From a virus, in the IMG/VR virus record IMGVR_UViG_3300045988_097708, positions 1 to 64,000 of that record: a stretch of 64,000 nucleotides of DNA, one strand, 5' to 3'. Under the pieces are notes generated by a model, which saw nothing but the letters and a program-made list of their open reading frames with translations, was not told the origin of the DNA and searched no databases. This document shows, piece by piece, positions 40,103-41,143 of the stretch. The translations under genes were made by a program, and so were the position numbers. The number at the start of each line of letters is the position of its first letter. Within the stretch, counting starts at the first letter, position 1.

Positions 40103-41143
40103 TTAGCCGTGGCGGAGAGTGGGGATGAACTGGGCGATGATTTTTGCCGCCTCGTCCGCTTCGGATAACGTATTCTGCCAGTCGAAGGAAAAACGGACGG
40201 TGGACAGGGCTTCTTCTTCGGTGAGGCCGCAGGCGATGAGGTTTTCCGAGGCGCGATTCTCGCCGCTGGAGCAGGCGGAGCCGGTGGACACCATGACGCC
40301 CCACTCACTCAAGGCTGCTGCCAGGGACGCGCCATAGACGCCGGGGAAACGGATGGAGAGGATGTGGGGAGCGACATTTTTACCGCCGTTTACCCGGTAT
40401 TCCACGCCGCTTTCCGTGAGGCGGTGCAAAAGGCGATCCCGCAGGTCGATGAGATGGGTGATGTTTTCCTCCATGTGGGCGGTGTGCCATTCCAGCGCCG
40501 CCGCCATAGCGCAGGCCAGCGGCACGGACACCGTTCCGCCGCGTTCTCCGCGTTCCTGTGCGCCGCCGTGAAGCAGGGGGGTAATGGGACAGCCATCCAG
40601 GCCAATCAACGCTCCTATGCCCTTGGGAGCGCCGAATTTGTGACCTCCGAACATTGCATAATCAGGGGAAAGTTCTTCCACATTTACGGAGATGTGACCG
40701 ATGGCCGCAGTCATGTCACAAGCCAACAATCCAACATTTCCACGAAACCTTTTGATGTTGTAAATTTGCCCGGTTTCGTTATTGACCAGCATTTGCGCGA
40801 GGTCCAGCTTGGTGTACTTGGGGACGTTGTACTGCGCTACTGCCTCGGTAACGGCGTGATGCTCGAAGGGACTGGCTATCATCGAGCGGTGCCGGAAATC
40901 TGCGGTGGAGCAGATGCTCTTGACTGCCCAGTTGCAGGCCTCGGTGGCACCGGAGGTAAAGTAGACCTCGCAGGGAGCACAGTTGAGGCACCGGGCGATG
41001 GTGGCGCGGGCGTTCTCCAGCGCGGCTTTCGCCACCCGCCCAGCGGCGTGGCTGCTGGACGGGTTTGCCTCCGGCGCGGATTGCATGGCGTCCCACGCGC
41101 AGGGAAGCACCGGTGTGGTGGCGGCATTGTCAAAGTAGATCAT
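40103..41143 (-). CDS. NifS/IscS-like cysteine desulfurase (class V aminotransferase), short form
   Basis: YFDNAATTP start, FTSGATEA, PLP-lysine motif GGHKFGAPKG, catalytic loop STGSACSSG. Confidence 0.8.
   Translation of the reverse strand: MIYFDNAATTPVLPCAWDAMQSAPEANPSSSHAAGRVAKAALENARATIARCLNCAPCEVYFTSGATEACNWAVKSICSTADFRHRSMIASPFEHHAVTEAVAQYNVPKYTKLDLAQMLVNNETGQIYNIKRFRGNVGLLACDMTAAIGHISVNVEELSPDYAMFGGHKFGAPKGIGALIGLDGCPITPLLHGGAQERGERGGTVSVPLACAMAAALEWHTAHMEENITHLIDLRDRLLHRLTESGVEYRVNGGKNVAPHILSIRFPGVYGASLAAALSEWGVMVSTGSACSSGENRASENLIACGLTEEEALSTVRFSFDWQNTLSEADEAAKIIAQFIPTLRHG

Follow-up and report, generated by a model that had tools for sequence, protein, structure and literature searches.

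A 64,000-nucleotide stretch of the virus record IMGVR_UViG_3300045988_097708 (positions 1 to 64,000 of 78,497 bp; GC content 57%), hereafter referred to as the window, carries on its minus strand, at positions 40103..41143, the gene for a compact class-I (NifS/IscS-type) cysteine desulfurase of 346 amino acid residues. The last 119 bases of the record are identical to its first 119, and this terminal repeat indicates that the record represents a complete genome, circularly assembled or terminally redundant, of a 78-kb temperate gut phage. The exact desulfurase protein was found on three independent assemblies. The open reading frame (ORF) starts with ATG, is preceded by an AGGAGG ribosome-binding site, and contains the motifs GGHKFGAPKG and STGSACSSG, from which a first-pass annotation of the sequence alone had proposed a NifS/IscS-like enzyme. 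This proposal agrees well with Pfam, PHROG, the catalytic residues and the fold. The protein matches Pfam Aminotran_5 (PF00266) with E=1.9e-44 (152.6 bits; cut-off, 21.5), and its best NCBIfam match is NifS (TIGR03402) at 227.6 bits, which misses the equivalog cut-off of 530.75; the other NCBIfam equivalogs score below their cut-offs as well (DndA, 184.4 against 480; IscS, 179.4 against 643.2). The PHROG match is phrog_12787 (E=2.4e-79), a full-length profile of 387 positions with its function listed as unknown, of which the compact phage clade described below lacks positions from about 120 to 150. In PADLOC, only the generic SspA and DndA desulfurase models match.

Residue conservation was judged on a 31-member family alignment, diverged to about 37% identity. 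Seven residues, H95, N122, D143, K169, T204, C291 and R317, are invariant in all 31 members and correspond, in our own alignment, to H104, N155, D180, K206, T243, C328 and R354 of IscS. K169 is the Schiff-base lysine within the (S/G)xHK motif, H95 the histidine stacking on pyridoxal 5′-phosphate (PLP), D143 the aspartate at the pyridine nitrogen, and R317 the substrate arginine. The invariant C291 is located in the catalytic loop STGSACSSGENRASENLIACG, which fits the SSGSACTS-like class-I motif on an extended loop, the class-I signature being defined by an insertion after the Cys (PMC8300815). The position of IscS Gln183 is occupied by Ala (DMTAAIGH here; DATAAxGH as the clade motif), nearly invariantly within the clade, Gln being kept only by the most distant member, P0153, and the His205-equivalent position is variable within the family. 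Gln183 of IscS is the residue in contact with O3′ of PLP.

In a sequence search of the PDB, the desulfurase was aligned with the T. maritima NifS-like protein, IscS, NFS1, DndA and SspA in two blocks, residues 2-105 and 117-344. Pairwise alignment with a host NifS indicates that the gap between the two blocks is a real deletion: the phage protein lacks the strand-loop-helix unit that in the host protein follows the PLP-stacking His and precedes the NNE strand, with a net loss of about 24 residues, and the C-terminus ends about 20 residues short of that of IscS. The AlphaFold2 model of the protein reached a predicted local distance difference test score (pLDDT) of 91.9 and a predicted template modeling (TM) score of 0.91, with lower confidence only in the deletion region and the Cys loop. 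By Foldseek, this model was superimposed on 1ecx (NifS), IscS and NFS1 with query TM scores of 0.89-0.93, in keeping with a fold-type-I PLP enzyme of the Aminotran_5 family, selenocysteine lyases being also among the structural neighbours. The phage enzyme resembles the NifS/IscS/NFS1 group (T. maritima NifS-like protein, 1ecx; E. coli IscS, 1p3w/3lvm) in fold, in sequence (30-32% identity) and in the PLP-lysine, His, Asp, Arg and Cys-loop motif, but differs in its shorter length, in the Ala for Gln183, in its phage-borne location and in the absence of a scaffold gene. The ratio of nonsynonymous to synonymous substitution rates (dN/dS), estimated for ten clade members, was 0.22-0.45, indicating purifying selection that appears relaxed for a desulfurase. 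From its sequence and structural model, we conclude that it is very probably a working class-I desulfurase whose architecture has been trimmed.

As the first-pass annotation had also noted, the gene follows an HU gene and a tRNA array on the same strand. The HU-type DNA-binding protein of 90 residues (41350..41622, minus strand) was recognized by Pfam (Bac_DNA_binding, 1.4e-25) and by phrog_379, and the array (41672..43248, minus strand) was resolved by ARAGORN and Rfam into Thr(CGU), a Gly(CCC)-like tRNA, a 112-nt tRNA-like gene, Gly(UCC) and Ile(UAU). Between HU and the desulfurase gene, the sequence contains a terminator-like hairpin, GAGCCGGA...TCCGGCTC followed by GTTTTGG (41285..41320, minus strand), of which the stem columns are invariant across six aligned loci. 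Closer to the desulfurase gene are the two direct repeats that had been pointed out before, which proved to be exact copies of TTTGCGAAAAT on the minus strand at 41167-41177 and 41200-41210, 33 nt apart and at distances of 24 nt and 57 nt from the downstream ATG. They are kept as a pair of TTTGC(A/G)AAA in four of the five relatives aligned and deleted in the remaining one. When one mismatch was allowed, TTTGCGAAAAT was matched 6 times in the window against 1.6 expected, and none of 100 shuffled sequences reached 6. By their TGnGAAAAT sequence, the repeats could represent extended -10-like elements in tandem, or else an operator; a consensus promoter scan called no promoter at these repeats. 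Copies with one mismatch were observed at 16378-16388, 6075-6148 and 63446-63456, one of them 43 nt before the start of a structural gene, and the motif may recur in this phage as an element of promoter type (TGnNAAAAT).

For comparison of the neighbourhood, we collected 80 viral loci with a family alignment, from a total of 427 viral stretches that encode a relative of the desulfurase; the sampled loci come largely from one metagenome project, and counts of lineages herein are not counts of independent samples. Conservation around the desulfurase gene extends to the tRNA array, to HU, to the paired small ORFs p92 and p55 and to an integrase-type recombinase. In 63 of the 80 loci, NifS has tRNA genes of its own orientation within 3 kb on the upstream side, whereas no locus has them within 3 kb on the downstream side, and an HU-like ORF is upstream and co-oriented in 68; all 28 close homologues of the HU protein are encoded on contigs that also carry NifS. 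The tightest unit is the tRNA array plus HU, after which NifS follows at a distance of 96 to 2,900 bp. Lineages differ in their tRNA sets: the window's clade has Thr(CGU), Gly(UCC) and Met(CAU), the array of the window containing Ile(UAU), and other lineages have Gln(UUG), Glu(UUC), Trp, Pro and Gly(CCC); in one locus (L022), Lys(UUU), Gln(UUG) and Met(CAU) directly precede NifS. The linkage to tRNA genes is frequent, directional and old, but not obligatory.

The p92 gene (39735..40013, minus strand; gene call) has homologues in 67 of the 80 loci, of which 27 have it before NifS and 40 after it, and p55 (39563..39730, minus strand; gene call), present in 66 loci, always adjoins p92. The p92/p55 pair lies between HU and NifS in one clade and follows NifS in the others, so that the order of HU, NifS, p92 and p55 is rearranged between clades with the genes still together. 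For p92 and p55, as well as for the nearby p54 and p72, neither Pfam nor PADLOC gave a match, and the PHROG matches were only to families of unknown function. As a persulfide carrier p92 was rejected, because the p92 family has no invariant Cys.

In virome surveys, viral cysteine desulfurases are usually listed as generic "auxiliary" genes of sulfur metabolism. The set analyzed here turned out instead to be a large group with its own architecture. More than 120 clusters at 72% identity or higher, with lengths of 343-354 residues, were found on contigs of 45-84 kb, some of which are labelled Caudoviricetes. An exhaustive search recovered short forms (340-360 residues) to identities as low as about 37%, beyond which come forms of the ordinary length, 375-390 residues; the closest full-length relatives have 376 residues and are also in phage contexts, and every NifS context opened within the clade was phage. 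In the tree of NifS, for which only two cellular references and an arbitrary root were used, the short forms and the 376-residue forms make up one clade, and a second viral NifS group clusters with the host NifS that is paired to NifU. Most members of the clade lack the 24 or so residues after the PLP-stacking His. On these sequence grounds the compact desulfurases are a phage-only lineage, present on hundreds of gut-phage contigs, with an intact active site and a conserved site behind the tRNA array. No NifU/IscU, ThiI, MnmA or DndC-type neighbour was found in any of the contexts opened, including those of the 376-residue relatives, and no scaffold gene was found among about 90 phage loci. 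The GenBank phage collection contained only one true relative (MT835520, 58% identity), most other matches labelled phage being unannotated and resembling bacterial contigs. Fusions among distant homologues (to HTH, Rrf2, DUF4357 and molybdopterin-binding domains) gave no consistent partner.

The first-pass annotation had further drawn attention to a second gene, at 58809..59903 on the plus strand, as encoding a DndC/TtcA-like PP-loop protein, and had proposed, as a speculative link, that the two proteins may form a two-component sulfur relay. The 364-residue product is indeed a PP-loop protein of the 3′-phosphoadenosine 5′-phosphosulfate (PAPS) reductase family: it carries SGGKDS and the Cys cluster CTGCQRTGCMFC, and it matches Pfam PAPS_reduct (PF01507; 2.3e-13, 51 bits against a cut-off of 22.5) and phrog_424 (6.8e-39). 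The more specific assignment failed, with 16.3 bits against a cut-off of 290.4 for the DndC model TIGR03183 and 17.9 bits against a gathering score of 27 for ATP_bind_3, the Pfam family of TtcA/TilS. The PADLOC matches are marginal and cover only the PP-loop N-terminus (DndC, E=8e-4; SspD, E=1.5e-6), the BrxP model being marginal as well; the PDB sequence search returned only a marginal match to flavin adenine dinucleotide (FAD) synthase, and the AlphaFold2 model (pLDDT 49.8) was too poor to use. Nine Cys residues are invariant (C50, C177, C194, C195, C235, C294, C302, C305 and C332), C194 and C195 making up a CC pair and C294, C302 and C305 lying in the CTGCQRTGCMFC cluster. This CC...CxxC...CxxC pattern suggests a [4Fe-4S] site as in adenosine 5′-phosphosulfate (APS)/PAPS reductases. 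The start of the gene is overlapped by a gene for a 100-residue sigma-70 region-4-like helix-turn-helix (HTH) protein (58507..58809, plus strand), for which Pfam and PHROG point to a sigma factor or regulator, and two genes downstream is an N6-adenine-type DNA methyltransferase with an NPPF motif (60646..61233, plus strand; phrog_799, 1.1e-41). The PAPS-reductase-like gene stands in a string with two DNA methyltransferase genes and an HNH gene.

In order to compare the distribution of the two genes, co-occurrence was counted in near-complete virus records, defined as those at least 90% complete; for the PAPS-reductase side, the 50 closest PAPS-reductase-bearing records were taken, of which 29 are near-complete. 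A PAPS-reductase homologue is present in 11 of the 23 near-complete NifS-bearing records, and any NifS in only 4 of the 29 near-complete PAPS-reductase-bearing records. All 11 have a NifS 57-90% identical to that of the window, and so belong to its own sub-clade, in which about 60% of the complete genomes carry both genes; the NifS lineages at greater distance have none. Phages with NifS proteins only 57-67% identical carry PAPS-reductase genes that are 93-96% identical, and these discordant identities indicate that the two genes have separate histories. The PAPS-reductase family is highly conserved and widespread (at least 580 viral contigs, and at least 8,000 homologous proteins at E<=1e-5), mostly on phages of 35-45 kb at the end of the replication module. 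By these comparisons the two genes are separate mosaic modules, and the PAPS-reductase-like gene is not an obligate partner of the desulfurase.

A different arrangement was found in other gut phages. In six loci, L069 (4646-7125), L073, L074, L077, L081 and L095, a gene for a PAPS-reductase-like protein of 450-488 residues overlaps, in the ATGA manner, the start of a full-length NifS gene. These PAPS-reductase-like proteins are 25-27% identical to that of the window, and the accompanying NifS belongs in the tree to the host-like clade, not to the compact clade. A vibriophage fusion of a PAPS domain with Dam has anti-Dnd activity, as shown genetically (Piel et al., bioRxiv 10.1101/2021.05.05.442762). 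By analogy, the overlapping pairs and this fusion together make it plausible that phage PAPS-reductase-like enzymes receive sulfur from a desulfurase and have DNA as their target. The protein of the window belongs to the same family (PHROG 424) and is encoded near DNA methyltransferase genes, but it lacks a fused methylase and has only a putative function, and most carriers of PHROG 424 have no phage desulfurase. The NifS of the window could serve its PP-loop protein where both are present, but such coupling does not explain the retention of the compact clade. The compact clade is now set apart from this second, operon-coupled type of phage desulfurase, which serves better as a model when a phage relay of sulfur to DNA is to be studied.

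As to the role of the compact enzyme, we tentatively prefer, with somewhat less than even confidence, the reading that it is a free-standing persulfide donor feeding the enzymes of nucleic-acid thiolation. PLP on Lys169 would strip sulfur from L-cysteine, the sulfur would be carried as a persulfide on Cys291 of the flexible loop, and it would then be handed to acceptors that the infected cell or the lysogen already contains. That the enzyme is active, which acceptor it serves and what the phage gains from it are points that we infer. That the sulfur goes to acceptors existing in the cell would follow from the lack of any scaffold or acceptor gene accompanying the desulfurase. Such acceptors are at hand in the host lineage: an Oscillospiraceae metagenome-assembled genome (MAG) that includes a related phage contig encodes two cellular desulfurases, one paired with NifU and the other directly after mnmE, together with ThiI and MnmA, so that the usual acceptors are available to a free-standing donor. 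As sinks we consider most likely the PP-loop thiolation enzymes of the host, ThiI and MnmA, with the products of the upstream tRNA and tRNA-like genes as their substrates; the Fe-S PAPS-reductase-like enzyme of the phage would be a further sink in the roughly one-half of the close relatives that have it. In support of a tRNA sink, Gln(UUG), Glu(UUC) and Lys(UUU), which in bacteria receive 2-thiouridine at position 34, are encoded shortly before NifS in distant lineages. Thiolation would in this way be better supplied with sulfur during a period of competition for host IscS/NifS. For phage lambda, the efficiency of infection is set by how IscS sulfur is divided between the thiolation of tRNA and iron-sulfur (Fe-S) assembly, and replication depends on this division (PMC3296357). 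The thiolation sink was ranked first on the basis of the directional tRNA linkage, the operon-coupled pairs, the absence of a scaffold gene and this lambda precedent, the order being thiolation (led by tRNA, with the PP-loop enzyme next in phages that carry it), then Fe-S supply, and then a dedicated DNA relay.

Among the nearest known counterparts are the NifZ-ThiI pair for 4-thiouridine at position 8 (s4U8) and the YrvO-MnmA pair for 2-thiouridine at position 34 (s2U34) of Bacillota, in which a class-I desulfurase without IscU serves tRNA thiolation (PMC8300815). In the phage, too, the desulfurase is connected with tRNA, through its neighbouring genes, and ThiI, MnmA and a desulfurase adjacent to mnmE occur in the host lineage; the difference is that the phage gene adjoins the tRNA substrates and neither ThiI nor MnmA. 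With the two paralogues of the MAG the phage protein shares 35% and 32% identity, and these values are not decisive for derivation of the phage gene from one of them. The phage-type NifS was detected in only one of 301 genomes sampled from the family of this MAG, and the named bins that contain relatives are only the Oscillospiraceae MAG and a probably mis-binned 'Staphylococcaceae' MAG.

Several points weigh against a role in thiolation of the phage tRNAs. The classical bacterial tRNAs with 2-thiouridine at position 34 are those for Gln, Glu and Lys with U34; the tRNAs of the window are not among them, and only the near-universal U8 fits. The NifS-clade lineages L018, L021, L057, L089/L090 and L220 have neither tRNA nor HU genes nearby and are interspersed in the NifS tree; since five or more lineages keep NifS without tRNAs, the phage tRNAs are not required. 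The linkage elsewhere may in part be gene order inherited within one broad phage group, and the predicted hairpin separates HU from NifS. With the replacement of Gln183 by Ala and the variable His205 position, the kinetics or the substrate preference could differ from those of IscS, and ThiI or MnmA, rather than the desulfurase, may be the limiting step.

A more specific form of the thiolation reading, which we regard as unlikely, is that the desulfurase is an arm of a phage 'tRNA package' composed of the tRNA/tRNA-like array, HU, NifS, p92 and p55. It would ensure s4U8/s2U34 thiolation of the phage-made tRNAs and tRNA-shaped RNAs, keeping them stable and functional or making them resistant to host defences that target tRNA, and the deletion and the Gln-to-Ala replacement would be adaptations to bypass the host regulators of IscS. 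If true, the virus would encode a sulfur donor that serves RNA modification specifically.

Auxiliary Fe-S supply, in which the desulfurase would feed the host NifU/SUF scaffold during infection or lysogeny and so load host Fe-S enzymes or the phage PAPS-reductase-like protein, is the main rival reading, though we regard it as unlikely. The best curated match of the protein is to NifS, the host MAG has NifU beside its NifS, and the cellular paralogue on the side of the phage clade in the tree is this NifU-linked NifS and not the mnmE-adjacent one, but the tree carries only the two cellular references and the arbitrary root. The invariant Cys pattern of the PAPS-reductase-like protein, typical of [4Fe-4S] members of the superfamily, would provide a phage-encoded client, and DndA reportedly loads the cluster of DndC. 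However, the Fe-S assembly systems of NifS/IscS have an adjacent NifU/IscU, as does the host NifS, whereas none is present in the window or in any related locus, and Pfam finds neither a radical S-adenosylmethionine (SAM) enzyme nor another obvious Fe-S enzyme in the 78-kb genome. Moreover, the clade deletion removes the strand-helix unit after the His helix and the C-terminus is truncated; these are presumably the regions that IscS uses for its regulators and for IscU.

The originally proposed relay, in which the desulfurase and the PAPS-reductase-like protein sulfurate phage DNA, as phosphorothioate or thio-base, for anti-restriction, stood in part: coupled genes do exist in the six overlap loci, and the vibriophage fusion provides an anti-Dnd precedent. 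As a dedicated system of this phage it is less probable still than Fe-S supply, even with the neighbouring methyltransferase and HNH genes and the frequent joint presence in the window's NifS sub-clade counted in its favour. The PP-loop gene is missing in 12 of the 23 near-complete NifS phages and NifS in 25 of the 29 PP-loop phages, the two genes lie 18 kb apart on opposite strands with different evolutionary histories, the operon-coupled NifS belongs to the host-like clade, and the DndC model is far from matched. DndA-DndC, SspA-SspD and the BREX type 4 desulfurase-BrxP pair are similar in that a desulfurase and a PP-loop protein of the PAPS-reductase superfamily are encoded in one genome, but the phage genes are neither adjacent nor co-inherited, and Pfam detected no DndB, DndD or DndE-type gene over the whole genome.

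A prophage moron function apart from thiolation (for example as a selenocysteine lyase, in depleting cysteine or releasing sulfide, or as decoy or inhibitor towards a sulfur-dependent host defence) is the least probable of all, for although the gene lies in a variable cargo zone, with Rha/ANT antirepressor, Abi_2, MazF/PemK-type and Zn-ribbon membrane genes nearby in different phages, and although its relaxed selection (dN/dS up to 0.45), its family-specific Gln183-to-Ala change and its selenocysteine lyase neighbours in structure would suit such a role, no residue of the catalytic set varies, nor does the class-I persulfide loop, and a decoy would need neither, and PADLOC gave no signal for a particular defence system beyond the generic SspA and DndA models. 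With the phage-only clade, its trimmed architecture and its conserved setting described, what had been a vague annotation becomes a testable question, namely whether temperate gut phages tune the flow of sulfur into tRNA or DNA thiolation.

Some further observations were made on the tRNA array and the flanking genes. The last tRNA before HU (41672-41747, minus strand) is Ile(UAU), and most relatives have at this place a tRNA with the CAU anticodon, called Met but possibly a lysidine-dependent Ile2; a change of C34 to U would permit decoding of AUA without TilS. In the arrays of relatives, ARAGORN predicted odd anticodon loops with four-base (tgac, ggta, gagt) or two-base (ga, aa) anticodons, the array members concerned being upstream of NifS in L011 (1438-1513), L033, L038, L026 and L031.

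The same-strand gene string ends with a tyrosine recombinase (37109..38137, minus strand; Pfam Phage_integrase), which is downstream of NifS and co-oriented in 60 of the 80 loci. A second tyrosine recombinase of the genome, at 67021-68175 beyond the window, is located beside a cI/Cro-like switch at about 68-70 kb and is more likely the integrase. The recombinase after the NifS block is directly followed by lysis genes, as also on a 154-kb contig of a relative, and may have another role. No prophage junction was found on this 154-kb contig, which may be a concatemer. Two copies of a 233-nt direct repeat, each carrying a p72 gene, are present on the minus strand at 38171..38403 and 43686..43918, with a spacing of 5515; they are 96% identical and encode identical p72 proteins, and weaker repeats occur in the Rha genes adjacent to them. 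In L004-L006, only part of this repeat-bracketed arrangement was observed. In the window the p72 repeats bracket a 5.5-kb block composed of p54, the tRNA array, HU, NifS, p92, p55, p57 and Rha, and recombination between the two copies would remove the entire block.

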